Shown here piece after piece: positions 1,250 to 42,566 of a stretch of DNA of 61,127 nt. The notes beneath the pieces are model-generated. The model was not told the origin of the DNA, did no database searches, and saw nothing but the letters and a program-made list of their open reading frames with translations. Made by a program: the position numbers and the translations under genes. The stretch is taken from contig JBJXDV010000026.1 in NCBI GenBank assembly GCA_046153465.1, positions 1-61,127 of the forward strand, read 5' to 3'. Origin of the DNA: Chitinophagaceae bacterium (GTDB lineage: Bacteria > Bacteroidota > Bacteroidia > Chitinophagales > Chitinophagaceae). Numbering within the stretch: position 1 is the stretch's first letter; each line of letters opens with the position of its first letter.

Positions 1250-2977
1250 TTAAACTAACGCCTTTACTTTTTTCGAGGGTATTAGCCATTGAACTAACCA
1301 TGAAAAGAAAAGTACACCCGCCGCTCCAATAACATTCAGCCATAAAAACGAAATGATATTGGCGAAGAAGACAACTAAGACAATGAGTTCGGATAATAAT
1401 GCACCAACAAACACAGCATTCCCTTTGATTCTTTTCAAATAAAAAGCAACCAGGAATACTCCTAATATCGTTCCATAAAACAATGAACCCAATATATTCA
1501 CTGCCTCCACTAAACTGTTCCCAAGGTTATAGGCAAACTGTGCGATAACAACACAAAAAATACCCCATCCAATGGTATACCATTTCGACCACTTGTATTC
1601 TTCCTCCTGAGTTAATTTTTTTGTAGAAAATTTATTGTGAAAATCAATCATGGTACAGGAAGCCAGGGAATTGAGTGCGGCTGCAATACTTCCCCATGCA
1701 GCTAAAAAAATAATTGCAATAATCAATCCTATCAAGCCCTTGGGCAAGAAGTCGCCTACAAAACGCAGGAATATATAGTTTGTATCATTTCCATCGGAAC
1801 CGGGATTTGCCTTTTTTACAAAGCTCTTTACAGACTGTCTTATTTCCTGGCTTTGCTGTTGTTGAAGTTGTAATTGATTTTGCAGCAACTCAATTTTATT
1901 GTTATCTGTTGATTTAAGAGCCGCGGCTAATTTTACTACCGTATTTTTTTTTGCTTCCTGCAACACATCGTATTGGGAAACCGCATTATCGTACGCTCCT
2001 GCATAAACGCTTTTTTTGACGACTTGCTCCTGTGCAAGATCAAAATAGGCTGGTGCTCTATAAAACTGGTAAAATGAAAAAACGAAAACGCCCACCAACA
2101 AAATAAAAAATTGCAAGGGCACTTTTACTAACCCATTAATCAATAATCCCATTTTACTTTCCCTTACATTCTTGGCAGTAAGATACCTTCCTACCTGGCT
2201 TTGATCGGTTCCAAAATAACTAAGCGATAAAAACAAGCCACCGATAATACCGCTAAAGATATTGTACTTGTCTTTCCAATCGAAAGACCCATTATTGACG
2301 CCACTGGTAATTACATTCAGCTTCCCCGATTTTCCACTGATTTGTAATGCATCCATTACTCCCACCCCTTCTGGCAACATATCTACCGCATACCAACAGG
2401 CAGCAAACATGGCGGCATAAATAATAATAAACTGAAGTTGCTGCGTGTAGGCTACCGCTTTAGCACCACCAGCAGTTGTATAAATAATTAATAAGCCGCC
2501 CATAGCAATATTGGTAATATAGAAATTCCAGCCTAATAAACTATGCAACACAATGGAAGGGGCAATTACGCTAATACCTGTTGATAATCCCCTTGACAAT
2601 AAAAATAGAAAGGAAGTGAGTGTTCTTGTTTTAAGATCAAAGCGCTGCTCGAGATATTCATAAGCAGTAAACACTTTTAATCGATGAAAAATGGGGACCA
2701 ATGTTACACAAAGGATCACCATTGCAATGGGTAGTCCAAAATAATATTGAACAAATCGCATTCCATCTGTATACGCTTGTCCGGGTACGGTTAAAAAAGT
2801 TACGGCACTTGCCTGCGTGCCCATGATGCTTACCAGAATTATCCACCAGGGCATTTGCCTATTGCCCAAGAAATAACCTTCCAGGTTACGGGATGTCCGG
2901 ATTTTATAAATTCCATAGGCGATAATCAACAACAAGGTTGCTATCAATACCGTCCAATCCAAGCCGGAAAATCTCAT
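1250..2977 (-). CDS. Sodium:solute symporter (SSS family)
   Basis: Many TM helices; YFLGNRQMPWW, TAYEYLEQRFD, GTDQSQVGRYL and ALNSLAS motifs. Confidence 0.93.
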   Translation of the reverse strand: MRFSGLDWTVLIATLLLIIAYGIYKIRTSRNLEGYFLGNRQMPWWIILVSIMGTQASAVTFLTVPGQAYTDGMRFVQYYFGLPIAMVILCVTLVPIFHRLKVFTAYEYLEQRFDLKTRTLTSFLFLLSRGLSTGISVIAPSIVLHSLLGWNFYITNIAMGGLLIIYTTAGGAKAVAYTQQLQFIIIYAAMFAACWYAVDMLPEGVGVMDALQISGKSGKLNVITSGVNNGSFDWKDKYNIFSGIIGGLFLSLSYFGTDQSQVGRYLTAKNVRESKMGLLINGLVKVPLQFFILLVGVFVFSFYQFYRAPAYFDLAQEQVVKKSVYAGAYDNAVSQYDVLQEAKKNTVVKLAAALKSTDNNKIELLQNQLQLQQQQSQEIRQSVKSFVKKANPGSDGNDTNYIFLRFVGDFLPKGLIGLIIAIIFLAAWGSIAAALNSLASCTMIDFHNKFSTKKLTQEEEYKWSKWYTIGWGIFCVVIAQFAYNLGNSLVEAVNILGSLFYGTILGVFLVAFYLKRIKGNAVFVGALLSELIVLVVFFANIISFLWLNVIGAAGVLFFSWLVQWLIPSKKVKALV

Positions 2978-3105
2978 GAAAAATGTTTAGTGACAAGGTA
3001 AAAAACTACGATCAATACCATCAGAAATAGAATAACCATCAGGTACCAGCCTTTCCAGTTTTTAAACAATGGCGGTTTTTCCTGATCGTTATTACTTGAC
3101 TTCAT
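2974..3105 (-). CDS. 43-aa single-TM membrane microprotein, probable SSS accessory subunit
   Basis: Manual translation: MKSSNNDQEKPPLFKNWKGWYLMVILFLMVLIVVFYLVTKHFS*. Its stop overlaps the SSS start (ATGA). Confidence 0.8.
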   Translation of the reverse strand: MKSSNNDQEKPPLFKNWKGWYLMVILFLMVLIVVFYLVTKHFS

Positions 3106-3266
3106 TTCCTTTTTTTTGCCGTTACAATCATTACATATATTAAACTGAACAATACTCCAATCAGCAAACCCAGGGAGAATTTTTTAATCAACTTGCCAAT
3201 AATAACTCCTGAAAATACCGCGATGGCAAATGCAACTCTTGGATTAACTTTTGAACGTTCGCTCAT
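3102..3266 (-). CDS. 54-aa hydrophobic membrane microprotein (probably 2 TM)
   Basis: Manual translation: MSERSKVNPRVAFAIAVFSGVIIGKLIKKFSLGLLIGVLFSLIYVMIVTAKKRK*. It starts 2 nt after the PIG-L stop and has an ATGA overlap with the next microprotein. Confidence 0.72.
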   Translation of the reverse strand: MSERSKVNPRVAFAIAVFSGVIIGKLIKKFSLGLLIGVLFSLIYVMIVTAKKRK

Positions 3267-3268
3267 TC

Positions 3269-5773
3269 TTAAAATGCTTTCTTTCGGTTTAATGCAATAA
3301 TATTTGCGAGCAGGCGGTATGCTCCGGGAATGCCAGCAGGAAGTTCCCTGAAAAACACCAGTCCGGTATATACAAATTTCCCTTTCCCATAACTGGCAAT
3401 CACCAGGCTACCTTCCTGGTCTTTCTCACCCGGATCAGCCATCGAAAGTGGTTTTTCATAAGCGCTATCGAGTTGTTCAGCATTATAAATACTCCGCTCC
3501 TGTAACCATCCCTCAAAATCGGAAGCAATAATTTTATTGGGATAATTCAGTACCGGGTGCTCTGGCAGCAGGATATTTACTTTCGCCCTCTCATCGGTTA
3601 CCCTGCTACGTGATATTGTTAATGGATAGGGGCCAATTTTAGCTTTCACATTACTGATAAAATTATTGGTACTATACTGTGCAATCAGGTTACCACCCTC
3701 TTTCACATAATTCATCAAAACTTCATACTTAGCCGCCATAAAATCATTCACGTTGTACGCCCGTACACCGGTAATGATCGCATCAAATTGTTTTAGATAC
3801 GATGGAACAATATCTTTTTCCTTTAAAACCATTACTTCATATCCCATTTGCTGCAACGCAATCATCACTTTATCTCCCGCCCCTTCAATATATCCAATCT
3901 TCTTACCTACTGTTTTAAGGTCCATATTCAAAATCTTTATCGCATCCTGATACATATAATGAATATGCGGAATATGGTCGTACTTAATGCTTGTTATATT
4001 CAAATATGCCGGGTATTCTTCCTTCCCCTTTCTCAATTCTGTAAAAGCCTGTACATAATCCTGGTCTGATTCTTTTAATAATTTGTTATTGATACTGAAT
4101 AAATAATCTTTCGTCAATCCCCTGGTAAGTGTAAAAGGGCTATCTACCTGTAAACTATTTTCTGTTCGCATACGTTTTGAAACTTTAATTGCGTATTCAC
4201 TAAAATTCCGGTGAGCCGTTACTTTTAAAAGTACTGTCGCCTTTTGATCTTCATTCTTACGAAAAATTACAACGCCTGGTTCCGTGGAGATAGCTACTGG
4301 TGGTACAACTACTAATGGCTGGTACAATTCTCCCCTAACCGGGTCGGTATACTTATATTGAGCGGGTTTGGTAAACCGAAAAAGCTGTCCCTCAATTACA
4401 AGATCAAAATCTACAAGAATGGAAGCATTATTCTGCGGCATTCCAATTAAAGTTTGCTCATTCACGTTGAATGAACCTTCACTCATTTTCTGCTCAAGCC
4501 AATAAGGCTGGGATATTTTCTTTCCCATTGAAACAACCAGCGGCTTTGTAAAAAAATAGTTTTTATTAAGTTCCAATAGCTGGTTCATCGTGCTATCAAA
4601 CCCATCGGTCATTATTTTTACCATACTCATCGTAACTCCACTCCGGTTATTCACAGAAACCGACAACCGAATAGAATCTCCCTGTACAGCGTACTCATTA
4701 TTAGCGGTGGCTTCAAGCCAGAGTCCGCTACACTGTTCAATGATGCGTTGGGTTTCTTCCAATTTTTTATTCTTCCAAAAACCATCCGGTAGTTGTTGAA
4801 TTTTTTTATACAGTGATACAAGTGAAGGAACTGATAAACCGGGTTTTGACAGAGAATAATTGCGAATAATATTATCAATGATAACTGGTAATTCCTCAGC
4901 GCCGGGTAATTTTGACCATGTGGTAACTACATCGTCCATGATATCCGTCTTTGCAACTGAACCATCTACCGGTGTAAAGTATTCGAATTGCGCACCCCTG
5001 CTTGCGGGAACACCAAATCCCTGGCTTTTATGCTGGCTACGGCTTTCGGCGGCTAATTCACCATAACTTTTTCCAAGTATTGCATTGTAGGCCCCTACAT
5101 CAATTTTTAATTGACTTTCATTAGTTGTATTTGTGTTGCCAAAATTAAACGTGTTCCAAACTATTCTTACCGGCTGCCAGGGTTTAACGCCAAATTTCAG
5201 TTGTTCCGGAAAGCGACTCGGATCTGCCGCTGCCTTAAATGCCTCACGGGCTAGTACAGCTGATCCTGAATGGTGCCCGTGACCTGCTCTTCCATCTTCC
5301 GGGAAACGGGCAATCACTACATCCGGTTGAAATTTTCTGATGATCCAAACCACATCGCTTAGTATTTTTTCTTTGTCCCATTTTTCAAATGCTTCACTGG
5401 TTGTTTTACTGAATCCAAAATCATAGGCTCTCGTAAAAAATTGTTCGGCCCCATCAATCCGACGTGCCGAAAGCAATTCCTGTGTTCGAATCAAACCCAG
5501 ATCTATCCCTTGTTCATCACCGATCAAATTTTGCCCCCCATCACCTCTTGTAATAGAAAGATAACCGGTACGGTACAATCTCTCTTTGGAGAGCCAGGCT
5601 AATAAGCGTGTGTTTTCATCATCGGGGTGTGCCGCAATGTATAAAACCGAACCTAAAACATTCAACTTTTTTAACTGAAGATAAATATCAGCGGATGTAT
5701 TAACGGGAGGTGTTTGTGATTGAACTGTTTGAACTAAAATAACAAGTAATACCAGCTCTACAAGTCTTTTCAT
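3269..5773 (-). CDS. Exported PIG-L/LmbE-family deacetylase with C-terminal class I GATase-like domain
   Basis: AHPDDE and HGHH metal motifs, RAYDFGFSK. Signal peptide MKRLVELVLLVILVQTVQSQ favours the start at 5773 over 5860. Confidence 0.9.
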   Translation of the reverse strand: MKRLVELVLLVILVQTVQSQTPPVNTSADIYLQLKKLNVLGSVLYIAAHPDDENTRLLAWLSKERLYRTGYLSITRGDGGQNLIGDEQGIDLGLIRTQELLSARRIDGAEQFFTRAYDFGFSKTTSEAFEKWDKEKILSDVVWIIRKFQPDVVIARFPEDGRAGHGHHSGSAVLAREAFKAAADPSRFPEQLKFGVKPWQPVRIVWNTFNFGNTNTTNESQLKIDVGAYNAILGKSYGELAAESRSQHKSQGFGVPASRGAQFEYFTPVDGSVAKTDIMDDVVTTWSKLPGAEELPVIIDNIIRNYSLSKPGLSVPSLVSLYKKIQQLPDGFWKNKKLEETQRIIEQCSGLWLEATANNEYAVQGDSIRLSVSVNNRSGVTMSMVKIMTDGFDSTMNQLLELNKNYFFTKPLVVSMGKKISQPYWLEQKMSEGSFNVNEQTLIGMPQNNASILVDFDLVIEGQLFRFTKPAQYKYTDPVRGELYQPLVVVPPVAISTEPGVVIFRKNEDQKATVLLKVTAHRNFSEYAIKVSKRMRTENSLQVDSPFTLTRGLTKDYLFSINNKLLKESDQDYVQAFTELRKGKEEYPAYLNITSIKYDHIPHIHYMYQDAIKILNMDLKTVGKKIGYIEGAGDKVMIALQQMGYEVMVLKEKDIVPSYLKQFDAIITGVRAYNVNDFMAAKYEVLMNYVKEGGNLIAQYSTNNFISNVKAKIGPYPLTISRSRVTDERAKVNILLPEHPVLNYPNKIIASDFEGWLQERSIYNAEQLDSAYEKPLSMADPGEKDQEGSLVIASYGKGKFVYTGLVFFRELPAGIPGAYRLLANIIALNRKKAF

Positions 5774-5811
5774 GAATACAAGTTTAATGCATTGAGATAA
5801 AGATAATATTC

Positions 5812-6435
5812 CTATTTCGTGCTCTTTTTGAATTGATAGGGTCCTTTTACAGAACCCCAAACCTGCAGGTTATCAGCATTCCATCCCCGATCCCAGGAAT
5901 GAATATTCATTTTATCGATAAGTACCTCGCTGGTGGCATAACTGGCACCACGCAGCGAACTCTGACAATCCTTGCCTTCAGTGGATCCGGTAAATTTACC
6001 TTGACTGTTTTTTCGGAGATAAACCTCACAACCAGCCCGGCTACTAAGCACGAAGAATTTTATAGAATCAAATCGCTTGGGTTCATTCCAATAGCCAATG
6101 AATCTGGCAGGATCCTTAAATTCGAATACCTGGCTCACGAGGATCGAATCATCCTGAAGATATAAATGGTACATGCGCTGGCGATAAGGTTTATCGGGTG
6201 TTTCTGTAGCTGCCTGTTCTACATACAACCAATAACCATCGTTTCGCTGGGGCCAAACCTGTTTCATATGTAAAGAAATAGATAAAAATGCAGTATCCAT
6301 TTTTGATTGTTGAGCAGTACTAAAGTTTCCCTGCATAAATGTTTTTAACTGCAATAAATCTTTTTTTCCCAATTTCTGGGAAAAAAGACTATAGCCAGTT
6401 GCCAGGAGGCTTATAATAATTAACAGCTTTTTCAT
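5812..6435 (-). CDS. CpcT/CpeT-family chromophore-lyase-like protein with signal peptide
   Basis: WLYVEQA...KPYRQRMY, GCEVYL, CQSSLRGASYATSEV and SWDRGW...QVWGS..GPYQF motifs. Start taken at MKKLLII. Confidence 0.85.
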   Translation of the reverse strand: MKKLLIIISLLATGYSLFSQKLGKKDLLQLKTFMQGNFSTAQQSKMDTAFLSISLHMKQVWPQRNDGYWLYVEQAATETPDKPYRQRMYHLYLQDDSILVSQVFEFKDPARFIGYWNEPKRFDSIKFFVLSSRAGCEVYLRKNSQGKFTGSTEGKDCQSSLRGASYATSEVLIDKMNIHSWDRGWNADNLQVWGSVKGPYQFKKSTK

Positions 6436-8416: not shown

Positions 8417-8448
8417 AAAAAAATAGAGCAGCTAAATGCTGCTCTATT
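8417..8448 (-). terminator. Intrinsic terminator between convergent genes
   Basis: Stem AATAGAGCAGC/GCTGCTCTATT with an A-run on the left, giving a U-tail on the minus strand. Confidence 0.8.
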
Positions 8449-8470: not shown

Positions 8471-11400
8471 TTAATTTCTTACACTAAACTCTACCCGCCT
8501 GTTTTGCGCACGTCCATTAGCGCTAGTATTATCACCTACTCCTTTTTCTGAACCGTATCCTGTGGCACTTAAGCGATCTGCGTCTATACCTTTTGAAGAC
8601 AGGTATTTCTTTACTTCGTCTGCACGGCTCTGTGAAAGCGCCATATTTTTCTCCTTCTTACCCGTATTATCTGTATGTCCATCTACGTTGATGGCCAATT
8701 TCGGGTATTTATTCATAATTGCCACCAGCTCATCGAGCTCTTTTGTAGCTTGTTTAGTTAGTTTAGAACTGCCAGTCAGGAAGGTTACATTCTTAGCATT
8801 GAAATTCATTTCTTCCAGTCTTGGGCAACCGAAGTTAGCTACGGGTCCGGCTGTTTCGGGGCAACGATCCTCATCATCAGCTACTCCATCATTATCTTTG
8901 TCTGGTATGGGGCAACCCTCATAACGGGAAAGACCATAGGTATCCGGGCATTTGTCTTTTGAATCCTGGATGCCATCGCCATCACGATCGGGGCAACCAG
9001 CAAATGCCTTGGGACCAGCTACATCAGGACAAACATCATCTTTATCCGCAACACCATCTCCATCTTTATCTGGACAACCGTTTAAAACTTTTGGACCAGC
9101 CACAGTTGGACAACCATCTAATTCATCAGCAACGCCATCACCGTCTGAATCTTTTGGAACAACCGGCGGTGGAGGAGGTGGTGGTGGAACAATTTTTACA
9201 GGGACTTTCACACACTTACCTAATTCAAAAATATCCAAACTTATACGTGCAAACATAAAACGACCGTTAAATCCAAACTGATTTGCAGAATAAAGGAAGC
9301 GACCACGGTTAGATAAGTCGCGGCCCGCGCTATGACCACCTGAAGTTTTATTCACACCTAATGCAGAAGCAATTGGCGCGTTGTAATAAGCATTTGGATC
9401 GTTACGTGGATCAACAAATATTCTGTCTGGGTAAACATCAAAAAGATTATTAGCACCTACAGATATATTCATCCCGGGGCAAGCTTTATAAGTGAGTACA
9501 AAATCTGTTGTCCACTTTGCACTGAATGTTTGATCGGTACCCAACCCAACATCATTCCAGTAGGCCCCTGTAGCAGCGTTTCGTGACGCCGGGTCGGCAG
9601 GATTTAACGCAGTAATTTCTCCAAACCTAACGGTACGTAATAAAACACTGTATTTACGAAGATCATAATTGAACGTAAAATTCAATTTTGTTTTTGGCTG
9701 CCCAACTTCAATACGAGAGCGTTGCTGCCGATCAAACAATGCCGTTCTTAAATCGTTTACAGGATTTTTAGTAGCGTCGTTTGTGCTTGGATTATTTATT
9801 GGGTCATCAATTACTGAATTCGTTAGAATGGAACCTACAACAGTATTATTATTATAGTTACCCGCAAAAGAAAGAGTCGCATTACCAGCGCCTAAACGGA
9901 AACGATGCGTAATCACCATATCTATTCCCTTTGTTTCTGTATTTACGGCATTTGTCCAAAACTGCAGTGCATTAATCGTTGGGTCTACTCCGTTACTGGT
10001 CAGGATTGATCCAATTAATGGATTGCTTCGGTTAAACTGGGAAGAAAGAACAATGCGATCGTCAATCCTGATGAAATAAGCGTCAATAGTAAGCGAAGTG
10101 TTTCTGCTGATATTTCCAACAACACCGGCTGTAAGGCTTTTAGAAGTCTCCGGACTAAGGCTTTCAACTCCAAATGCTTTGCGAACAATTGGGTTATAGT
10201 TGTTTGCCGTTAATGCTTGAGAAGGAAGACCTGCTACAAATTGTGTAGATGTATTTTGGAAATAACGCTGATGCAAAGACGGAGCGCGGAAACCAGTACT
10301 TGCAGATGCGCGTACCGCAATCTTGTCTGTTATTTCGTAGCGTGCTGCCAGTTTACCACTTAAGTTAGAATAATTAAATTGTAATTCATCATAGGTTTCA
10401 TACCGCAACGCACCACCCAAAACAAATTTGCGGGTCCTTAACTCAAGATCTGTGTAAAACGCATACATATTTCTGTTAGCATTTACTGCATCGGCAGGTT
10501 GAAATCCTGGGAATACCTGTGAACCAGATACGGCCGTGCCCGGGCTAAATGTAAAAAAGCCAGAAGTGCCCGGATAAGGAGGAATAGGATCGGGTTGAAA
10601 TTGACGACCACCGTTAATGTAAGAATTGGCCTCGCCCTGCGCAATGGTAAAACGTTCGTAACGATACTCTCCGCCAAATGCAACGTTCAGAGTTCGGCTT
10701 CCTCCAAGTTCCACCTTTCTATCCAAATCAACATTAATGGTATTCTGAAGAAATCCAAGTGAACCTGCATAAAACTTCGTTTGTACAGCATTGGTAGCAG
10801 GCAGGGAAGAGTTACCTGAATTAGAAATATCGTACCTAAGTGAATTCTCACCGCGGGTATTACTGATATCAAGATCCCATGCTCCGGCTTTAAAGTTTAA
10901 TCCGGCACTTACAGAGTAATCAATAATTCGTGTATTGATTACCGGTAAAAACCCATCGTAATAAAACCGCTGGCCATTTGCCAAAACAGGTTGCTGACTC
11001 CACGAGTTTGGATTTCGGCTAAAGCCACTTGCATCGCCATTACGTTGAGAATAACCAGTAGTCAGGTAGAAATTAATATTTTTAGAAATAGGCACACCTG
11101 CGTTCACAAAAACACCAGTATTTGTATTGGAAGAATTACCCGCAACGATATTACGCCTGTTATATCCTCTTTGACTCACTACTCCTTTATCAAGATCTAT
11201 TAACCATCGATAATAATCGTTTGAGGTAATACCTGCAGGCACAGCCGCGGTACCTGGTAATCCACCGCCATTACCTGTATAGATCAGCGGAATATTATCT
11301 AATCCACTACGGTTCGTATTATCGCGTTGCAACCACTGACCGCTGACATTTACATAGGCCCCATTTTTCCATCCCCAGCCACCACTGAAATCAAATTGGC

Positions 11401-12271
11401 GGTTTAAACCATCTTGAATTTTTACTCCACCTGCGTAGGGCATATTCGTGAAATTTTCACCCAACATTCCTGATATATTCAACCCTTTATAATTCTTTTT
11501 TAAAACAATATTTATTACTCCGGCAATTGCATCTGAACCGTATTGAGCAGCGGCACCATCGCGGAGTACTTCGATGCGTTCGATGGCAGCAGCAGGAATT
11601 GTATTCAAATCTGTTCCAACAGATCCTCGTCCTACGGATCCATTAATATTAACCAGGGCCGAGTTATGCCTGCGTTTTCCATTGATCAACACCAGTGTTT
11701 GATCTGGTCCTAATCCCCGCAAACCAGCCGGATCAATATGATCGGTACCATCCGAAACTGTTTGTCGCGATGATTGAAAAGAAGGAGCTACATAAGTGAG
11801 CATTTGGGTTACATCTGCCTGGGCAAACTGTTTGATCTCCCTTGCGTTGATAACATCAACCGGAACGACGGTATTTAATTTGCTGCGTGGCACCCTCGAA
11901 CGGGAACCAACTACAACTACATCGGTGAGATCTGACGCAACATTTATGTTTGCATTTTGCTCAACGGTTTGTCCAGTACCAACAGTTACCATGTAACGTT
12001 GAGGAGTTGCACCTACATAAGTTACGACCAGTGTATAAGTACCAGCTTTTACTTTAAGCAAATAATTACCATTTGCATCGGTTAAAGTACCGCCCCGTTG
12101 ACCTTCAATAGTTACTGAAGCACTACTGAGTGGACTTCCATTCGCATCCTTTACATTTCCTTTAATAGCACTTGAAGATTGAGCAATGGTCCATTGAAAA
12201 GTGAACATCAAAAAAGCAAAGAAACCTGCTCTACGAATAGTGTAGATAAATTTTCTCATAAACTGTCTCAA
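8471..12271 (-). CDS. TonB-dependent receptor fused to poly-Pro linker, four TSP3 repeats and an OmpA-like peptidoglycan-binding domain
   Basis: N-terminal CarboxypepD_reg-like domain, TonB box (DVVVVG), plug motif IERIEVLRDGAAAQYGSDAIAGVINI, and a barrel ending FGFNGRFMFARISL. Then P8, four DxDxDG...CP...GCP units, and OmpA motifs GHTD, LSQSRA and NRRVEF. Confidence 0.92.
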   Translation of the reverse strand: MRQFMRKFIYTIRRAGFFAFLMFTFQWTIAQSSSAIKGNVKDANGSPLSSASVTIEGQRGGTLTDANGNYLLKVKAGTYTLVVTYVGATPQRYMVTVGTGQTVEQNANINVASDLTDVVVVGSRSRVPRSKLNTVVPVDVINAREIKQFAQADVTQMLTYVAPSFQSSRQTVSDGTDHIDPAGLRGLGPDQTLVLINGKRRHNSALVNINGSVGRGSVGTDLNTIPAAAIERIEVLRDGAAAQYGSDAIAGVINIVLKKNYKGLNISGMLGENFTNMPYAGGVKIQDGLNRQFDFSGGWGWKNGAYVNVSGQWLQRDNTNRSGLDNIPLIYTGNGGGLPGTAAVPAGITSNDYYRWLIDLDKGVVSQRGYNRRNIVAGNSSNTNTGVFVNAGVPISKNINFYLTTGYSQRNGDASGFSRNPNSWSQQPVLANGQRFYYDGFLPVINTRIIDYSVSAGLNFKAGAWDLDISNTRGENSLRYDISNSGNSSLPATNAVQTKFYAGSLGFLQNTINVDLDRKVELGGSRTLNVAFGGEYRYERFTIAQGEANSYINGGRQFQPDPIPPYPGTSGFFTFSPGTAVSGSQVFPGFQPADAVNANRNMYAFYTDLELRTRKFVLGGALRYETYDELQFNYSNLSGKLAARYEITDKIAVRASASTGFRAPSLHQRYFQNTSTQFVAGLPSQALTANNYNPIVRKAFGVESLSPETSKSLTAGVVGNISRNTSLTIDAYFIRIDDRIVLSSQFNRSNPLIGSILTSNGVDPTINALQFWTNAVNTETKGIDMVITHRFRLGAGNATLSFAGNYNNNTVVGSILTNSVIDDPINNPSTNDATKNPVNDLRTALFDRQQRSRIEVGQPKTKLNFTFNYDLRKYSVLLRTVRFGEITALNPADPASRNAATGAYWNDVGLGTDQTFSAKWTTDFVLTYKACPGMNISVGANNLFDVYPDRIFVDPRNDPNAYYNAPIASALGVNKTSGGHSAGRDLSNRGRFLYSANQFGFNGRFMFARISLDIFELGKCVKVPVKIVPPPPPPPPVVPKDSDGDGVADELDGCPTVAGPKVLNGCPDKDGDGVADKDDVCPDVAGPKAFAGCPDRDGDGIQDSKDKCPDTYGLSRYEGCPIPDKDNDGVADDEDRCPETAGPVANFGCPRLEEMNFNAKNVTFLTGSSKLTKQATKELDELVAIMNKYPKLAINVDGHTDNTGKKEKNMALSQSRADEVKKYLSSKGIDADRLSATGYGSEKGVGDNTSANGRAQNRRVEFSVRN

Positions 12272-12409: not shown

Positions 12410-14125
12410 ATGAAACAATTATTACGAAGTTTTGCCATTTTTTTCCTTTTGTTTCCTTCCTGCAAAACGCAGAACGGACGTACTAAAAGCAACTATCTTG
12501 ATGCGTTTAACTATAACATAGTAAAAAAAGTAAAATGCTCCAATGGTGCTGTCGTTACTGCTCACCCATTAGCAAGCAAAGTTGGTTTAGAAATGCTAAA
12601 AAAAGGAGGCAATGCAATAGACGCAGCGATTGCTATTCAACTTACGCTCGCAGTGGTGTATCCGGGAGCAGGTAATATCGGAGGAGGAGGATTTATGGTT
12701 GCGCGTTTAGCTGATGGTACAAATCTTACGTTGGATTTTCGGGAAAAAGCGCCGGGCAAAGCATTTCGTGATATGTACCTTGATGAAAAAGGAAACGCAA
12801 AGGTAACTTTAAGCCAAGATGGTCACCTGGCTGCTGGTATACCAGGAACAATCGCTGGTCTTTTTGCAGCACATAAATATGGACAACTCTCATTTAAAGA
12901 ATTGATTCAACCGGCTATTGACTTGGCTGAAAAAGGATTTGTAATTACCGAAAACGAAGCAAGCAGTTTAAACGGGACACAAACTGAATTCATAAAATAC
13001 AATACAGTTAGTCCTGTTTTTGTTAAGCACGGCGGGTGGAAAGTTGGCGATACACTTATTCAAAAAGATCTGGCAAAAACCTTGCTTCGTATTCGCGATA
13101 ATGGGCAAAAAGGATTTTATGAAGGAGAGACTGCCCGGTTAATAATAGAAGAAATGGCAAGAGGAAAAGGAATTATTAGTTATGAGGATTTAAAAACTTA
13201 TGAAGCGAAATTTAGAGAACCTGTAGTATTTAATTATAAAGGATATAAGATTGTTACCATGCCCCTGCCCGGCAGCGGAGGAATTTTATTGCCGCAAATG
13301 ATGAAGATGATAGAAGATAAACCAATCAAATCATACGGATTTCAATCAGTGCAATCTGTTCAATTGATGACAGAAGTTGAGCGCAGATCGTATGCCGACC
13401 GGGCAAAATATTTAGGTGATGTGGATTTTTATAAAGTACCTGTAAAAAAATTAATCAGCGACCAGTATTTAAAAGTTAGAATGAGTGATTACGATCCAAA
13501 CAAAGCCGGCAACAGTACACTCGTTAATGCAGGTATTATTGCCGAGAGTGAAGAAACAACTCACTTGAGTGTTTATGATAAAAACGGTAACGCAGTTGCC
13601 GTTACAACTACTCTTAACGGTGGGTACGGAAGCCGAACAGTGGTAAGTGGCGCTGGCTTTTTACTGAATAATGAAATGGACGACTTTAGTGTAAAACCCG
13701 GAGTTCCGAATATGTATGGCGCAGTAGGGGCCGATGCAAATGCCGTAGCACCTGGTAAACGCATGTTAAGTTCAATGACTCCAACAATTGTTTTAAAAGA
13801 TAATAAACCTTACCTGGTGGTGGGTACTCCTGGTGGAACAACAATTACAACTTCCGTTTTTCAAACCCTGGTTAATATTTTGGAATATGATATGAATGCT
13901 TTTGATGCCGTAAATAAACCAAAATTTCATCACCAATGGCTACCCGATATGATTTTTGTTGAACCAGATTTTCCATCGGAGGTACGTAAGGAACTTGAGA
14001 AGATGGGATATAAAGTTACCAGCCGAGGACAAATTGGAAGAACAGAAGTGATTCGCATTTTACCTAACGGCAGTATTGAGGCAGTTGGTGATAAACGTGG
14101 CGATGATGATGCGGAAGGATATTAA
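12410..14125 (+). CDS. ggt: Gamma-glutamyltransferase, lipoprotein
   Basis: GGNAIDAA, LDFREKAP, ETTHLS (Thr nucleophile), NNEMDDF, SSMTPT and GTPGG motifs; lipobox-like LFPSC. Confidence 0.96.
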   Translation: MKQLLRSFAIFFLLFPSCKTQNGRTKSNYLDAFNYNIVKKVKCSNGAVVTAHPLASKVGLEMLKKGGNAIDAAIAIQLTLAVVYPGAGNIGGGGFMVARLADGTNLTLDFREKAPGKAFRDMYLDEKGNAKVTLSQDGHLAAGIPGTIAGLFAAHKYGQLSFKELIQPAIDLAEKGFVITENEASSLNGTQTEFIKYNTVSPVFVKHGGWKVGDTLIQKDLAKTLLRIRDNGQKGFYEGETARLIIEEMARGKGIISYEDLKTYEAKFREPVVFNYKGYKIVTMPLPGSGGILLPQMMKMIEDKPIKSYGFQSVQSVQLMTEVERRSYADRAKYLGDVDFYKVPVKKLISDQYLKVRMSDYDPNKAGNSTLVNAGIIAESEETTHLSVYDKNGNAVAVTTTLNGGYGSRTVVSGAGFLLNNEMDDFSVKPGVPNMYGAVGADANAVAPGKRMLSSMTPTIVLKDNKPYLVVGTPGGTTITTSVFQTLVNILEYDMNAFDAVNKPKFHHQWLPDMIFVEPDFPSEVRKELEKMGYKVTSRGQIGRTEVIRILPNGSIEAVGDKRGDDDAEGY

Positions 14126-22306: not shown

Positions 22307-25300
22307 ATGCTTAAGAGAATTGCGCACTTCTTGCTTGCGTTGATAGTATTTCCTTTTGCCCTCATCGCCCAGGAAACCAATAGTAATATTGGTGGAACCA
22401 TTAAAACAACTAAAGGCGAACCACTTGTTGGAGCAACCATTACCGCAACCCATATTCCTACAGGAACTATTTACCGGATTGCGAGCCGCACTGGTGGTCG
22501 ATTTAATTTATACAATGTCCGTCCGGGCGGACCCTACACTATTGCAGTAAGTTTTGTAGGGTTTAATGATGAAAAAAAAGAAGATATCTTCCTTAATCTG
22601 GGCGAAACATCTATTCAGGATTTTCAATTGGCAGATAAATCAACCAATCTTACAGAAGTTGTAGTAGCTGCAAGAAAAATTCTTTCCTCAGGAAAAGGTG
22701 GAACAGAAACAAGTATTGGCCGGGATAAAATGGCTAACCTTCCGAATGTTGGACGTGGTTTGAATGATTATCTTAAATATACACCACAAGCAAAAGTTAC
22801 TGGAGATGGTGGTGTTGCATTTGCAGGTCAGAATAACCGTTATAATTCTTTTTTCATTGATGGCGCAAACAATACAGATATATTTGGATTGGCCGCTTCG
22901 GGAACCAATGGTGGACAAGCTGGCGTTGCACCCATTTCTATTGATGCAATTGATCAGATACAGGTTATACTTTCTCCATACGATGCGCAATTTGGAAATT
23001 TTACGGGCGGTGCTGTAAATGCAATAACAAAGTCGGGCACCAATCAATTGCAAGGATCTTTATGGTATTATTTCCGTGATCAAAATCTTACCGGCTTATC
23101 TCCAATCGCATTACCTAAAGTTGGTTTTCCAAATGTTGTAGAAAGAGCACGTATTGCTCCATTCACCAATAAAACCTATGGTTTTCGTTTAGGGGGGCCC
23201 TTAATTAAAAATAAATTATTTTATTTTTTCCTTGCAGAATGGCAACGAGATACAAGGCCACAACCATTTAATTTGGCCGATTACCGGGGAACTACTAACC
23301 AAACCGGTTTGGATAATCTTGCAAACCTGCTTCGTTCAAAATACAATTATGAACCGGGTGGTTATTTAGATAATCCAGAGCAGGTAAATGCAGAACGTAT
23401 CAATGCTAAGATTGACTGGAATATTAATGACAACAATCGTTTCTCGCTTTCTTATCGTTATAACAATGGTTTACGATACAATACTTCCAGCAGTGCCAGT
23501 ACCGTGATCAATTATTACAACAACGGATTTCTTTTCCCCAACAAAACACATTCTGTATCTGCTGAATTGAAGTCTAGTTTTAAGAACAATTCGAATAACA
23601 GGTTATTAGTTACTTATACCAACGAGTTGGATGACAGGGGCCCCATTGGTCAATCATTTCCAAGGGTAAGCATTTTGGATGGACCCGGTACAATAGTATT
23701 TGGAACAGAAAATTTTTCTGCCGGCAACCTACTAAAGGCAAAAAATCTCAGCATCCTGGATATGGTAAAGTTCTATAAGGGTAATAATGTTATTAGCGTT
23801 GGAACCGACAATGAATTCAATAATGTTTTGAATACTTTCGTTCGTGATAATTTTGGCACTTATCAATTTAGCAATATAAACGATTTTATTAACGGTGCAA
23901 CACCGCGCAGGTACCAACGTTCATTTTCTTTACTTGATGCCCAGTCTGGCGACGCAACAAAAGCTTCTGCCAAATTTAAAACACTTCGCATTGGCTTTTT
24001 TATTACCGACGAAATTAAAGTCAATGATAATTTTAGTTTGATACTGGGTATACGGGCAGACAGAACCGAACTTCTTACCAAACCATTGGAAGATAAATTC
24101 TTTAATGATACGGCTGTTGCTAAAATTTCTCAGTATTATGATTTGCAAGGGGCACGTTCCGGCCAAACAATGGATCCACGCTGGATGATTTCGCCGCGCA
24201 TTGGATTTACCTATCGTATGCCGGAAGAAGGAGTAGCCATAAGGGGTGGAATGGGAATTTTCGCTGGCAGGGTACCGCTAGTGTGGCCGGGAGGCGTTTA
24301 TAATAACAATGGAATTAGTATTGGTGGTGTTGATTTGAATCCTCCCGCAAGTGGTTTTGTTTTTAACCCCGATCCTCTTAATCAACCTACTGCTGCTTCT
24401 CTTGGACAAAATATTAGTAATTCACGCGGACAAATCGACCTAGTTGCAAAAGATTTTCGTTTGCCAACAGTTTTCAGAACTTCTTTAGCCGTTGATAAAA
24501 AATTAGGAGAAGGCTGGACATTTACTACAGAGCTAATACTTACAAAAAATATTTGGGAGCTTAATTATCAAAATGTAAATATTCTTCCACCAATAGGTAA
24601 ATCGCTTACATTGGATTCGCGTAATGTTTATTCTGCTGGTGCTGCGCCAACGCGTATTCCGCTTAGGTCAAATGGCACTAATCCTTATCCAGGTATGGTT
24701 TATCTTTTGAGCAATAATAAGGGCCGCAAAGGTTTTTCATACTCTTTAACGATGACGATCGATAAAGCGTTCAGAAATGGATTTGCATTCAACGCCAACT
24801 ACACTTACGGAAATTCGGTTACCCTCAATGAAGGAACAAGTTCTCAAAATAACTCTCAGTGGAGGTTTATGGAAACAGTAAATGGCAGAAACTTTACTCA
24901 GCTTTCAACTTCGGATTTCGATTTAGCACATCGTATCAATGCTTTTGTAAGTAAACAATTTGAATACGCGAACAAATCAATGTCGACTACCATTTCACTT
25001 GTTTATATTGGGCAATCTGGTAGTCCTTATAGCTATGTATATAGAAATAGTCCGGTAAACGATCAGGCTTCCACTGAAACTAATGACCTGATTTATATTC
25101 CGTCTGTTGCAGATTTATCGAGCATGTTATTTCTTACTAACACTGTAAATGGTGTTACCTACACAGTTCAGCAACAAAAGGATCTTTTCAATAACTTTAT
25201 CGAAAGCGATAAATACCTAAGAAAGAATCGCGGCAAATTTGCCGAGCGCAACGGAGCTCGTTTGCCATTTACAAATAACCTTGATCTTAAAGTTGAACAA

Positions 25301-25582
25301 AAATTCAATGTAAAAATCAGTGGAAAAAAATACACATTCTCACTTACCTATGATGTATACAATTTCACCAATATGATTAACAAGGATTGGGGCAGAACCT
25401 GGTTCCTTGCAAATGATAACTTTGCCTTAGTGCAGTTTGCAGGGTATGTTAGTCCAACCAATCTTACACCTCAATACCGATTCAGCCCTTTTGCAGGAAA
25501 GCCTTATGGTGTTAGCACTACACTTAACCCAGGTTATACGGCAAGATGGATAAGCCAGTTAGGCTTCCGCGTTAGTTTCTAA
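22307..25582 (+). CDS. TonB-dependent receptor (Oar-like, CarboxypepD_reg N-terminus), no adjacent SusD
   Basis: TonB box EVVV, plug motif ISIDAIDQIQV..SPYDAQFGNFTGGAVNAITKSGTN, and the C-terminal QLGFRVSF. Confidence 0.92.
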   Translation: MLKRIAHFLLALIVFPFALIAQETNSNIGGTIKTTKGEPLVGATITATHIPTGTIYRIASRTGGRFNLYNVRPGGPYTIAVSFVGFNDEKKEDIFLNLGETSIQDFQLADKSTNLTEVVVAARKILSSGKGGTETSIGRDKMANLPNVGRGLNDYLKYTPQAKVTGDGGVAFAGQNNRYNSFFIDGANNTDIFGLAASGTNGGQAGVAPISIDAIDQIQVILSPYDAQFGNFTGGAVNAITKSGTNQLQGSLWYYFRDQNLTGLSPIALPKVGFPNVVERARIAPFTNKTYGFRLGGPLIKNKLFYFFLAEWQRDTRPQPFNLADYRGTTNQTGLDNLANLLRSKYNYEPGGYLDNPEQVNAERINAKIDWNINDNNRFSLSYRYNNGLRYNTSSSASTVINYYNNGFLFPNKTHSVSAELKSSFKNNSNNRLLVTYTNELDDRGPIGQSFPRVSILDGPGTIVFGTENFSAGNLLKAKNLSILDMVKFYKGNNVISVGTDNEFNNVLNTFVRDNFGTYQFSNINDFINGATPRRYQRSFSLLDAQSGDATKASAKFKTLRIGFFITDEIKVNDNFSLILGIRADRTELLTKPLEDKFFNDTAVAKISQYYDLQGARSGQTMDPRWMISPRIGFTYRMPEEGVAIRGGMGIFAGRVPLVWPGGVYNNNGISIGGVDLNPPASGFVFNPDPLNQPTAASLGQNISNSRGQIDLVAKDFRLPTVFRTSLAVDKKLGEGWTFTTELILTKNIWELNYQNVNILPPIGKSLTLDSRNVYSAGAAPTRIPLRSNGTNPYPGMVYLLSNNKGRKGFSYSLTMTIDKAFRNGFAFNANYTYGNSVTLNEGTSSQNNSQWRFMETVNGRNFTQLSTSDFDLAHRINAFVSKQFEYANKSMSTTISLVYIGQSGSPYSYVYRNSPVNDQASTETNDLIYIPSVADLSSMLFLTNTVNGVTYTVQQQKDLFNNFIESDKYLRKNRGKFAERNGARLPFTNNLDLKVEQKFNVKISGKKYTFSLTYDVYNFTNMINKDWGRTWFLANDNFALVQFAGYVSPTNLTPQYRFSPFAGKPYGVSTTLNPGYTARWISQLGFRVSF

Positions 25583-39983: not shown

Positions 39984-42566
39984 CTATTGTTCCTCTACCC
40001 TTGCGCTTCCTCCATCAATTATTCTTCCAAAGAAAATAGCATTCATAAACAATTTAGTTCCTCCTAACCAAAAAGCGCGGAAGTTTGGGTTGTCTGCAAT
40101 ATTGATCACTCTACCTGCACCTACTGTATTTACAATAACTGCGGAGGAGTTTTTTATAGCATCCCCATTTTCTTTACTAACCCAACCACTTTGCAATGGC
40201 TGGCTTCCATAATAAAAAGGAGAGCCAAAAGGGTTTTTTCCTTTTTCCATAAATACTTTATTTGCCTTAAAAAGGCTGATAATTTTTGTATGATACCCGT
40301 AAGCCAATGGATGTGTGAGGTCTGTTTCGGCTCCAAAAATAGCACCGCTCACCTGCTGTGCTCCTTCAATCTGTTCTCTTTCCACATAAGAAAACTTCTT
40401 GTTGCTGTCAACCGGCGATTTAGGTGTTTTAAAAGAAATAGAACTAATACCATTTTGCGCCGACCATTGAACGGCTTCTTCCAATGCTATTAAAACACCG
40501 CCACCCTGTACCCATGCTTTCAATTTTTCTTTATTCAATTCTGCGTAATTACCTCCAACCATAACGATCGTATTGTACTTCGACAAATCGATACGGTTAA
40601 AAGTAGTTTGCTCAAGGTGTGTAGCAGGTATGTTCATGCGCTGATCCAGCAAATACCAAATTTCACCGGCATCCGTTGGATTTACACCGGTTCCTACTAA
40701 CATGGCTATAACGGGCCGGGCAACCGAAATCATTTTATTACTGCCCAGATCACTGCCGATTTGCACATTTCCAGTTTTTACACTGTAAATGGTAATTCCA
40801 TTTTTTTCAGCTACTCCATTTATGAGCTCATATAGTTTTACCGCATCCAGTTTCTGTAATTTTACTGGTATTGAAATCGTTCCATAATCAAATCTCTTTA
40901 CTCCATTCATTGTTTCTATTTCAAACTTACTGGTGGCTGTTTTAACGAGTACTCCGGCTTCCTGTAATTCATACAAAGCTTTTGGTGCAAGTAACTCATC
41001 CCATTGAAACAAATAGGCATAGTCACTTTTTCCTCCGATAAGGTTCCCTTTTGGCAATGATATTGTTTCCACTTTATTTCCTAATAAAGAAATATTGTAT
41101 TTTGCTGCATCCAATTCGGCATAATTCAATCCGAAGGCAAGAGGCATCGTCCACGCAGTAATGTCATAAAATAAACTGTCCTTGTAAGAAAGTGTTTTAT
41201 CGAAGATAGCATGAATCAGTCTGTTTTGTGGCTGATTGGTTGGAACAACAAAGGCATTTCCTTTTTCAAAATTTAAGCCCTCGATCGAGAAATTAGTATT
41301 CAATTCATATACCTCCACCTGATGACGCCGGAGCATTTCAACAAACAAAGTTGTTTTTGTCAAATCGTCTTTATCGCCCAGTACATACCCTTTAATCAAC
41401 GACTTGCCCGCTTCGGCAATAGCCGTTCGATAAAATTCTCTTTGCCAGTTTAAAAAGTCTTTTCTTAATATTTTTGCCCCTTCCAGTGTAGACAAGGCCG
41501 TTACAAATTGATTTTTTATGGTTGCCGGAAATTTTAAAATTCCGTTAGAAGTTTGTTGTGCATGACCTCTTGACGAAGCCTGCTCGAATAAAATTCCGAT
41601 TGCTCCATTAATATCCGGATACGTGGATCCTTTGCCGTAATAGTAATCATCATAGTTTTCTTTTGTAAAATATAACGAGCCAATCCGATCTAAAAATTGA
41701 GCATGAAATTTTCCCAGGCTGGCCGTAAGCTCCTGATTTCTGGAAGGTGTTAATGGATTGACTCTTGAAGCGACACCTGGTTGAAAAAAGAAGGTAGCAT
41801 TGCTTCCCTGCTCGTGATGATCCGTTAAAATATTTGGTTTCCAATAATGAAACCATTTTAGGCGGTTCTGGCTTTCTAGATGAACTGCGGGTAACCAATC
41901 CCGATTCAAATCAAACCAATAATGATTGAAACGACCACCTGGCCAGGCCTCATTAAACTCTCTGGAATTTGGATCGCTTACCAGGTTCTTACTTTTATGT
42001 TGATTAACCCAGGTGGAAAAACGCTGCAATCCATCCGGATTGAAGGAAGGATCCAAAAGAATAACTGTATTATCCAGTAATTCATCAATTTGTTTTCCCT
42101 GTGCAGCAGCAAGGTAATAAGCAGTTACTAAGGATGCATTTGCACCACTTGGTTCATTTCCATGAATGGAATGACCGATCCAAACCACAATCGGCATTTG
42201 ATCAATGTTGATCAAAGATGATTTTGCCGGATCAGTAAGTTGAACATGCTGCCGACGTATAGATTCTAAATTATCATGATTTTTTTTTGACGTGATAATG
42301 AGTAATACCTGTGGGCGATTTTCATAGGTAAACCCCATTGTTTCCAACTTAACACGATCCGGCGCCGCCGCAGCAATTGCCTTCATATAGTTAACTAACC
42401 GATCGTGGGTAACATGCCATTCACCAACTTCGTGGTAGATAATTTCTTTTGGTTTGGGAATTGATGGATTATAATTAACTGAATCTGGTAAATAGTATTT
42501 CAGATCCTGGGCAAAAAATAAAGAGGGAATTGCAACTATTGAAATTGCAAGAAAAATTTTTCTCAT
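39984..42566 (-). CDS. M14-family zinc carboxypeptidase, exported, with C-terminal GATase-like region
   Basis: SIHGNE, NPDG, DLNRDW and DHHEQ motifs; signal peptide. Confidence 0.92.
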   Translation of the reverse strand: MRKIFLAISIVAIPSLFFAQDLKYYLPDSVNYNPSIPKPKEIIYHEVGEWHVTHDRLVNYMKAIAAAAPDRVKLETMGFTYENRPQVLLIITSKKNHDNLESIRRQHVQLTDPAKSSLINIDQMPIVVWIGHSIHGNEPSGANASLVTAYYLAAAQGKQIDELLDNTVILLDPSFNPDGLQRFSTWVNQHKSKNLVSDPNSREFNEAWPGGRFNHYWFDLNRDWLPAVHLESQNRLKWFHYWKPNILTDHHEQGSNATFFFQPGVASRVNPLTPSRNQELTASLGKFHAQFLDRIGSLYFTKENYDDYYYGKGSTYPDINGAIGILFEQASSRGHAQQTSNGILKFPATIKNQFVTALSTLEGAKILRKDFLNWQREFYRTAIAEAGKSLIKGYVLGDKDDLTKTTLFVEMLRRHQVEVYELNTNFSIEGLNFEKGNAFVVPTNQPQNRLIHAIFDKTLSYKDSLFYDITAWTMPLAFGLNYAELDAAKYNISLLGNKVETISLPKGNLIGGKSDYAYLFQWDELLAPKALYELQEAGVLVKTATSKFEIETMNGVKRFDYGTISIPVKLQKLDAVKLYELINGVAEKNGITIYSVKTGNVQIGSDLGSNKMISVARPVIAMLVGTGVNPTDAGEIWYLLDQRMNIPATHLEQTTFNRIDLSKYNTIVMVGGNYAELNKEKLKAWVQGGGVLIALEEAVQWSAQNGISSISFKTPKSPVDSNKKFSYVEREQIEGAQQVSGAIFGAETDLTHPLAYGYHTKIISLFKANKVFMEKGKNPFGSPFYYGSQPLQSGWVSKENGDAIKNSSAVIVNTVGAGRVINIADNPNFRAFWLGGTKLFMNAIFFGRIIDGGSARVEEQ

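Follow-up and report, generated by a model that had tools for sequence, protein, structure and literature searches.

The window, a stretch of 61,127 nt from a Chitinophagaceae bacterium, carries on its minus strand a single open frame (8471-12271) that begins with TTG and encodes 1266 aa without internal stops. Since homologues start at the point of an ATG at 12259, the true start is likely four codons downstream of the TTG, giving a protein of 1262 aa. Pfam matches fall at residues 36-121 (CarbopepD_reg_2), 131-252 (Plug) and 406-943 (TonB barrel), followed by TSP_3 and by OmpA at 1163-1258. The features of this TonB-dependent transporter (TBDT) gene and its neighbour are as follows.

8422..8448, both strands: terminator-like hairpin directly 3' of the stop codon
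8474..8818, minus: predicted OmpA-like peptidoglycan (PG)-binding domain with Asp1201, Asn1209 and Arg1216 (PF00691, E 1e-21, 77.5 bits)
8819..9151, minus: four TSP3 repeats with eight Cys (PF02412; PDB 5wtl, E 2.5e-86)
9152..9208, minus: Lys/Val/Pro linker including eight prolines (9164-9187), of the type seen on small-barrel OmpA proteins
9209..9232, minus: periplasmic helix behind the last strand, bearing Cys1020 (9212-9214); helix 904-911 of the AlphaFold2 model
9233..11485, minus: 22-stranded beta-barrel, last strand 1004-1013 (PF00593, E 5e-28, 99.7 bits; AlphaFold2 strands)
9479..9481, minus: Cys931, at the end of strand 20 (a turn on the periplasmic side); the barrel has no other Cys
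11498..11905, minus: Plug domain (PF07715, E 1e-19, 71.5 bits vs cut-off 23.9)
11906..11926, minus: residues 116-122, whose sequence and pre-plug position we take to resemble a TonB box; conserved in homologues
11939..12175, minus: Bacteroidota N-terminal extension, CarboxypepD_reg-like (PF13715, E 4e-17; PF13620, E 9e-16)
12182..12259, minus: likely start (ATG 12259, from homologue starts) and Sec signal peptide, residues 5-30, with a putative cut before Gln31 (site by inspection alone; Gln invariant in homologues)
12410..14125, plus: divergent gamma-glutamyltranspeptidase gene (ggt; PF01019 and TIGR00066 over cut-off), its product (GGT) with a lipobox-like Cys18 (by inspection)

As the initial annotation had described, a complete TBDT in an uninterrupted frame is followed by a run of eight prolines (residues 1029-1036), four TSP3 repeats with DxDxDG motifs at residues 1041, 1068, 1095 and 1124, and an intact OmpA-like domain. 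A short helix precedes the prolines. The AlphaFold2 model, which covers residues 111-1266 (mean pLDDT 77; plug and proline linker <50), agrees: 22 barrel strands were counted in its DSSP list, the final strand (1004-1013) is followed by a helix at 1014-1021, and the model puts the tail in the periplasm. The top Foldseek matches were PfeA, PirA and FepA, with 14% identity. TBDTs are taught as ending at the last strand, without a direct link to the wall, and the chains of canonical relatives stop at the position of Ile1014. The tail of the fused protein extends 252 residues beyond its last strand. The earlier emphasis on continuation past that strand holds for the long tail but not for the overrun itself: of 105 unfused barrels examined, 99 extend 2-24 residues beyond the Ile1014 position, so that overrun characterises the entire close clade, fused and unfused alike.

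A chimeric assembly, or two genes joined by read-through, had to be considered, since the source is metagenome-assembled (526 contigs) and TSP3 repeats are prone to picking up foreign reads (with loose ends at 9018-9086). The probability of this is practically negligible. Relatives do not always carry two separate genes: 43 of the 120 best homologues (counting the window's own record), from several sources, are fused at the identical point, and fused homologues with the same tail reach down to 53% identity. The read support that had been sought at about 9150-9260 was also obtained, as two read-derived contigs (X1 record 3, 9033-9401; X3 record 18, 9007-9263) bridge the junction without gaps or differences; both come from one study, which may be the source sample.

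The tail is 53% identical (Foldseek) to the periplasmic part of Capnocytophaga gingivalis OmpA (PDB 5WTL), and the proline linker, four TSP3 repeats and OmpA-like domain are shared with Bacteroidota OmpA-family proteins having a TSP3 spacer. These have a small barrel, however, and in place of the eight-stranded N-terminal barrel of two-domain OmpA/OprF proteins the window protein has a plugged barrel of 22 strands. With FepA, PfeA, BtuB and the Bacteroidota TBDTs that bear an N-terminal extension it shares that extension, the plug and the 22-strand barrel, with a TonB-box-like stretch before the plug; it differs from canonical TBDTs (∼14% identity) in its 252 extra periplasmic residues and the lack of SusD. 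Assignment to SusC/RagA was rejected (TIGR04056, 92 bits vs cut-off 368; no susD downstream). Myxococcus TraB (NF033763) and PorE (NF052230) are likewise outer-membrane (OM) proteins with a TSP3/OmpA-like or OmpA-like wall anchor; both models matched the tail only (147 vs cut-off 700 bits and 76 vs cut-off 600 bits) and were rejected. The nearest counterpart in the literature is the cyanobacterial AMIN-TBDT (CctA; 10.64898/2026.07.30.741596, PMC2572700), in which a PG-binding domain is also fused to a TBDT and wall anchoring is so far a proposal. The AMIN domain is restricted to cyanobacteria and sits at the N-terminus, adjoining the TonB box, whereas the window protein carries its anchor, an OmpA-like domain, at the C-terminus, after the final strand. 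The window protein is not itself of that type, as Pfam gave no AMIN match and its N-terminal extension is CarboxypepD-like. OmpM of diderm Firmicutes also unites nutrient channel and OM tether in one protein; it is described as a passive porin with an SLH domain, in contrast to an energised TBDT. We found no characterised orthologue of the window TBDT, nor anything in the openly accessible literature on a TBDT that carries an OmpA domain at its C-terminus. Among the ESM Atlas rows listed, no cluster of at least 50 combined the barrel and OmpA families, a blank that carries no weight.

The fusion is present in 14 of 301 genomes of the family (eight genera). Of 300 other genomes of the family, 211 carry the same tail, chiefly on OmpA proteins of 440-490 aa, which agrees with its earlier description as the usual tail of small barrels; it is also borne by DUF5723, PorP/SprF and DUF6089 proteins. 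Identity to OmpA tails of the family reaches 61%. The tail is missing from 105 of 159 close barrels, unfused ones being up to 71% identical, and from all but one of the 43 Plug-bearing ORFs of this genome. At least 13 changes of tail state are required on the barrel tree, their direction depending on cost (from eight gains and five losses to one gain and 21 losses). Locus L052 retains TSP3 only and L053 a linker stub, stages of decay; no decayed tail DNA was found 3' of unfused genes in L001-L063. The tail probably came from several donors, judging by the sequence tree: the tail of the window's clade is nested among OmpA tails (93/99), that of clade E groups with two OmpA tails (99/96), and a single clade of TBDT tails is marginally disfavoured (AU p 0.040). 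Resemblance to the tails of clades A and B alone guided the choice of donor tails for this tree. By sequence measures the tail is under purifying selection: 51 of the 52 complete tails retain Asp/Asn/Arg, dN/dS against L001 is 0.017 (TSP3) and 0.090 (OmpA), and in seven further relatives pN is 0.07-0.22 vs near-saturated pS.

Among the 159 barrels both Cys931 and Cys1020 are present in 39, the turn Cys only in nine, the tail Cys only in three and neither in 108; the pair occurs in 34 of the 54 proteins with a fused tail and in 5 of the 105 without one. In comparisons of independent pairs the two residues co-vary (5.8 same : 0.2 opposite, median p 0.031), while association of the Cys pair with the fused state is not significant (median p 0.125). 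New metagenome rows had both Cys in 6/6 fused and 0/25 unfused proteins, five of the six fused rows being near kin of the window. The pattern suggests that a Cys931-Cys1020 disulfide likely staples the tail's root to the periplasmic barrel turn. The pair is lacking in 20 of the 54 fused proteins, and L249 has the tail Cys alone.

The gene looks monocistronic: 3' of it are the hairpin and a convergent MBL-fold gene, with no SusD partner there; a sigma-70 promoter scan performed at chance level. The ggt gene adjoins the TBDT gene in 31 of 52 distinct loci of the family and in 5 of 39 loci outside it (four families, differing orientations). Among 19 fused loci examined, 18 have ggt as a neighbour and the remaining one has no upstream DNA; 16 of 36 unfused members have it too. 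An M14 peptidase gene, likewise kept among unfused members, is downstream in 17 of the 52 loci. The conserved adjacency hints at gamma-glutamyl peptides as cargo. It may be plain synteny within the family, and 21 of the 52 loci have no ggt; we regard as possible, at somewhat less than even chances, a small gamma-glutamyl peptide such as glutathione that would be cut by the neighbouring periplasmic GGT. In the openly accessible literature a GGT-linked TBDT is not described.

We consider it probable that the protein is an importer doubling as an optional OM-to-wall tether, its OmpA tail predicted to bind meso-diaminopimelate (mDAP). As in the case of OmpA, the last strand from which BAM folds the barrel would be internal to the chain. 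The Cys931-Cys1020 disulfide would fasten the tail at its base to the barrel rim on the periplasmic side, the TSP3 repeats would form a disulfide- and Ca-stabilised spacer, as reportedly seen in the structure of the periplasmic part of C. gingivalis OmpA, and the OmpA-like domain would bind mDAP of the cell wall from the periplasm. The benefit would be envelope coupling and a transporter kept on the cell, rather than plug opening. The wall-tethered transporter of the initial annotation is well supported by the modelled periplasmic topology, the conserved Asp/Asn/Arg, whose spacing equals that of Asp576/Asn584/Arg591 in PorE (PMC7192894), and purifying selection. Of the three roles then offered, the OM-PG link fits best, while bracing and fixing of position are weakened, the latter because OmpA reportedly stays immobile even without its PG-binding domain (PMC3637615). 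Bacteroidetes are without pal genes and OmpA-domain proteins have been proposed as tethers there (PMC12204202). According to PMC11648852, OmpA links OM and wall via a flexible linker, and an E. coli chimera of the OmpX barrel with the OmpA tail does not fully replace OmpA; a foreign barrel may thus tether poorly. Since the genome has 12 other OmpA-domain ORFs, the TBDT would add little tethering unless abundant. Codon bias of the fused gene is moderate (78th percentile) and uninformative as a proxy for abundance.

The tail could instead be a mechanical brace, the disulfide-pinned helix, polyproline rod and rigid TSP3 block acting as a strut against the wall that would provide counter-force or withstand torque as TonB pulls the plug, and so raise transport efficiency. 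Pulling on the plug and wall anchoring on the motor side have been proposed (PMC10771500), and the Cys pair suggests that the junction of barrel and tail bears load. We regard the brace as unlikely: the linker is of low confidence in the model, losses are frequent, an inward pull would slacken rather than tighten the barrel-wall link, and the many close barrels without a tail suggest that transport likely does without it, as do the genome's other Plug-bearing ORFs. PG-binding domains do recur on TBDTs, AMIN being found in 66% of cyanobacterial TBDTs (10.64898/2026.07.30.741596). Anchoring might then be a recurrent, selected TBDT accessory, with independent OmpA-tail origins in several lineages and AMIN in cyanobacteria, in which a stapled strut gives TonB its counter-force or catches gamma-glutamyl-mDAP peptides for GGT; we find this broader account rather unlikely.

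The number of state changes and the decay stages would also suit a near-neutral passenger, an OmpA tail that recombines readily onto barrels and is tolerated, selection keeping only its fold. This is decidedly unlikely given the retained Asp/Asn/Arg, the low dN/dS, the co-varying Cys pair and a whole genus-level clade that retains the tail at saturated synonymous distance. A receiver function, with the TBDT scavenging gamma-D-Glu-mDAP peptides of other bacteria, the OmpA-like domain catching them in the periplasm and GGT and the M14 peptidase cutting them, draws on the gene neighbourhood and on PorE, which co-purified with L-Ala-gamma-D-Glu-mDAP-D-Ala, OmpA-like domains binding free stem peptide (PMC7192894). 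Still, it is highly improbable: unfused members retain both enzymes, barrels of unrelated kinds bear this tail too, the binding site would already be filled by the wall of the cell itself, and the M14 protein, which gave no useful PDB match, has no solved relative to indicate its specificity.

For an importer that doubles as a tether, the finding means that the C-terminus of a TBDT can carry folded cargo behind the last strand, which is useful for engineering and for studies of the BAM signal in Bacteroidota. Orthologues with and without the tail offer a natural test of whether anchoring helps uptake, and, suitably matched, allow TonB force transfer to be separated from envelope coupling alone. 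The conserved link to GGT offers, for the first time, a pointer to the substrate of a TBDT family that is widespread and uncharacterised.

The initial annotation described one uninterrupted TBDT-TSP3-OmpA frame of 1266 aa, and the open frame, the Pfam domain order (CarboxypepD-like N-terminal extension, plug, TonB barrel, TSP3, OmpA) and the barrel in an AlphaFold2 model all bear this out. In a comparison with homologues, their start codon matches the ATG at 12259. The features are as follows.

8471-12271, minus strand: fusion ORF, a single open frame of 1266 codons
Residues 1029-1036 of the product: eight prolines
Residues 1041, 1068, 1095 and 1124: four DxDxDG motifs
Divergent from the fusion gene: gene (ggt) for gamma-glutamyltranspeptidase (GGT), with a lipobox-like Cys in the product

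The AlphaFold2 model (residues 111-1266, 109-sequence alignment) has a mean pLDDT of 77 and a pTM of 0.67, with pLDDT <50 for plug segments and the proline linker. Its DSSP list gives 22 barrel strands, the final one at 1004-1013, followed by a helix at 1014-1021. In TBDT barrels even-numbered strands end in the periplasm; the last strand being the 22nd, the tail is expected to be periplasmic. BAM is known to handle last strands internal to a chain, as in OmpA. Foldseek ranked PfeA, PirA and FepA highest for the model (∼14% identity) and matched the tail to 5WTL (53% identity; sequence match with E-value 2.5e-86), where TSP3 reportedly has a Ca-binding and disulfide role. A second TBDT-like gene in the window (22307-25582, PF25183 barrel) has the canonical end at the last strand.

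The tail is present at the identical junction in 43 of the best 120 of 7550 matches (the window's own record counted); fused homologues, own record excepted, are 53-84% identical to the window protein, and the named records are Chitinophagaceae MAGs. Sequence support across the junction, where the initial annotation had allowed for an artefact, comes from two read-derived contigs that span it unchanged (a single study, possibly of the source sample). Since the junction is both shared and bridged, the fusion is not an artefact. Among 301 family genomes, 77 carry a family member at an E-value of 1e-100 or better and 14, from eight genera, carry a fused one (in one case truncated at the end of a contig, in another reduced to TSP3); the remaining genomes were scored as unfused from inspected loci or open frames <1000 aa. 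A 401-genome sample of the phylum gave 39 matches outside the family, none with the tail. The window genome encodes 13 OmpA domains and 43 Plug-bearing frames, with a single case of both in one frame. Other Bacteroidota families contain tandem paralogues of this TBDT family (loci L125/L246 at G315:C95, and L128).

The TSP3-OmpA tail is a promiscuous anchor module of Bacteroidota. The proline-TSP3x4-OmpA unit occurs in 211 of 300 other family genomes, chiefly on OmpA-type proteins of 440-490 aa; tails of the TSP3-OmpA type, frequently rich in repeats, also occur on DUF5723, PorP/SprF and DUF6089 proteins (P0139, P0235 and P0130). A tree of 80 tails (103 minus 23 near-copies) places clade A tails, the window's included, within OmpA tails (93/99, unstarred; the first tree gave 99/99). 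Clade E tails join a pair of OmpA tails (99/96), and clades B, C, D and F form a separate group (91/95). A single TBDT-tail clade is only marginally rejected (AU p 0.040, with donors sampled by likeness to clade A and B tails). In the barrel tree, fused and unfused members interleave with at least 13 changes, the counts ranging between 8 gains/5 losses and 1 gain/21 losses. Two TBDT loci adjoining ggt are natural stages of tail decay: L052 (934-4116) stops at the end of its four TSP3 repeats and lacks the OmpA domain, and L053 (755-3547), next to the fused L055, ends in a 24-residue linker stub. We infer an early fusion followed by many truncations and by tail swaps from OmpA paralogues; possibly, tails were instead gained repeatedly de novo on a permissive C-terminal stub. 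Of 159 distinct barrels (183 rows minus 22 duplicates and two fragments), 105 are unfused; 99 of these extend 2-24 mostly basic residues beyond the canonical end, while relatives outside the family mostly end at the last strand. Reading on past the last strand, as first noted, holds for the window protein and is common to the close clade in general, unfused members included.

The tail appears functional by its sequence. PorE is reported to bind mDAP via Asp576, Asn584 and Arg591 (PMC7192894); equivalents occur at equal spacing in the window protein (Asp1201, Asn1209 and Arg1216), and 51 of 52 complete tails retain all three putative mDAP residues. Against the related locus L001, dN/dS is 0.017 for TSP3, 0.090 for the OmpA domain and 0.039 for the barrel; seven further relatives gave pN of 0.07-0.22 and pS of 0.67-0.92 against the window gene. 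Synonymous divergence from L001 is uneven: the N-terminal extension shows 0.03, the plug 0.11, and barrel and tail roughly 0.3. This suggests recent within-gene recombination.

Of the ten Cys of the window protein, eight lie in TSP3; the other two are Cys931 and Cys1020. In the model Cys931 lies where strand 20 ends, at a periplasmic turn, and Cys1020 sits two strands away, in the helix that follows strand 22; the two are a likely disulfide staple. Both Cys occur in 39 of the 159 barrels, the turn Cys only in nine, the tail Cys only in three and neither in 108; by independent pairs the two change in the same direction 5.8 times versus 0.2 in opposite directions (median p 0.031). Fused barrels have both in 34 of 54 cases and unfused ones in 5 of 105, those five within fused clade B; new metagenome rows, excluding contig-end cuts and rows without the last strand, have both in 6/6 fused (five near kin of the window) and 0/25 unfused. 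Against the staple, the pair is absent in 20 of 54 fused barrels, L249 has the tail Cys alone, and the association of the pair with fusion does not reach significance when judged on independent pairs (p 0.125).

In the proposed mechanism the ligand would be imported through the barrel by the normal TonB route, while the tail is likely to bind wall mDAP, coupling outer membrane and wall as OmpA is described to do (PMC11648852). The initial interpretation is supported in part: of the roles proposed for a wall tether, this outer membrane-PG link seems the most likely. Bacteroidetes reportedly have no pal genes, and OmpA-domain proteins have been proposed as their tethers (PMC12204202), which fits an anchor module spreading over many barrels. 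Counting against the tether, the window genome has 12 other OmpA-domain proteins, and in E. coli an OmpX barrel carrying the tail of OmpA is reported not to substitute fully for OmpA (PMC11648852). The main rival, a brace against the pull proposed for TonB (PMC10771500), is kept alive by the likely Cys staple. It is weakened by the number of orthologues that lack the tail, and also by geometry, as an inward pull would slacken a barrel-to-wall link unless it were a stiff strut. Fixing of position is weakened too, because OmpA is reported to be immobile even without its PG domain (PMC3637615).

The window gene looks monocistronic, with a two-way hairpin at its end. A SusC identity was rejected (score far below the SusC cut-off, no susD partner at the locus). 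Within the family ggt flanks the TBDT gene in 31 of 52 distinct loci, and an M14 peptidase gene lies downstream in 17; ggt adjoins 15 of 16 fused loci (the sixteenth without upstream DNA) and all three further fused loci. Outside the family it is a neighbour in 5 of 39 loci (four families; divergent, upstream or downstream). An M19 dipeptidase occurs at one locus and amino-acid permeases at two, but the majority of these outside loci have unrelated neighbours. On the strength of these neighbours, small gamma-glutamyl peptides such as glutathione are a tentative cargo, with the chances somewhat below even. The order ggt, TBDT, 840 aa M14 peptidase is conserved in L007, L009, L040, L042, L058, L061 and others, often followed by genes for a PIG-L protein and a sodium:solute symporter, and would constitute an uncharacterised peptide-scavenging locus. 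The window retains the latter two (1250-5860) without an adjacent M14 gene; an M14 paralogue at 39984-42566 is 31% identical to the usual partner, whose close orthologue was not found in the window's assembly. Locus L010 has ggt, TBDT and M14 peptidase genes of Bacteroidota type but comes from a record titled Williamsia sp., a genus of actinobacteria; it is probably bin contamination.

Literature searches found no report of a TBDT fused to an OmpA domain at its C-terminus; such a fusion is not mentioned in the text consulted of a TBDT review (PMC11658791), a Bacteroidota BAM paper (PMC12578637), an outer membrane tether survey (10.1101/2021.05.31.446380) or PMC5413942, whose supplements could list the architecture. 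The nearest published analogue, the cyanobacterial AMIN-TBDT (AMIN reported on 66% of cyanobacterial TBDTs, anchoring putative; 10.64898/2026.07.30.741596, PMC2572700), has its PG-anchor domain at the N-terminus, whereas the OmpA domain here is C-terminal. The window protein combines known parts in an architecture not found in print. It offers a likely disulfide staple and a substrate lead, and its natural relatives with and without the tail are matched pairs for comparison.
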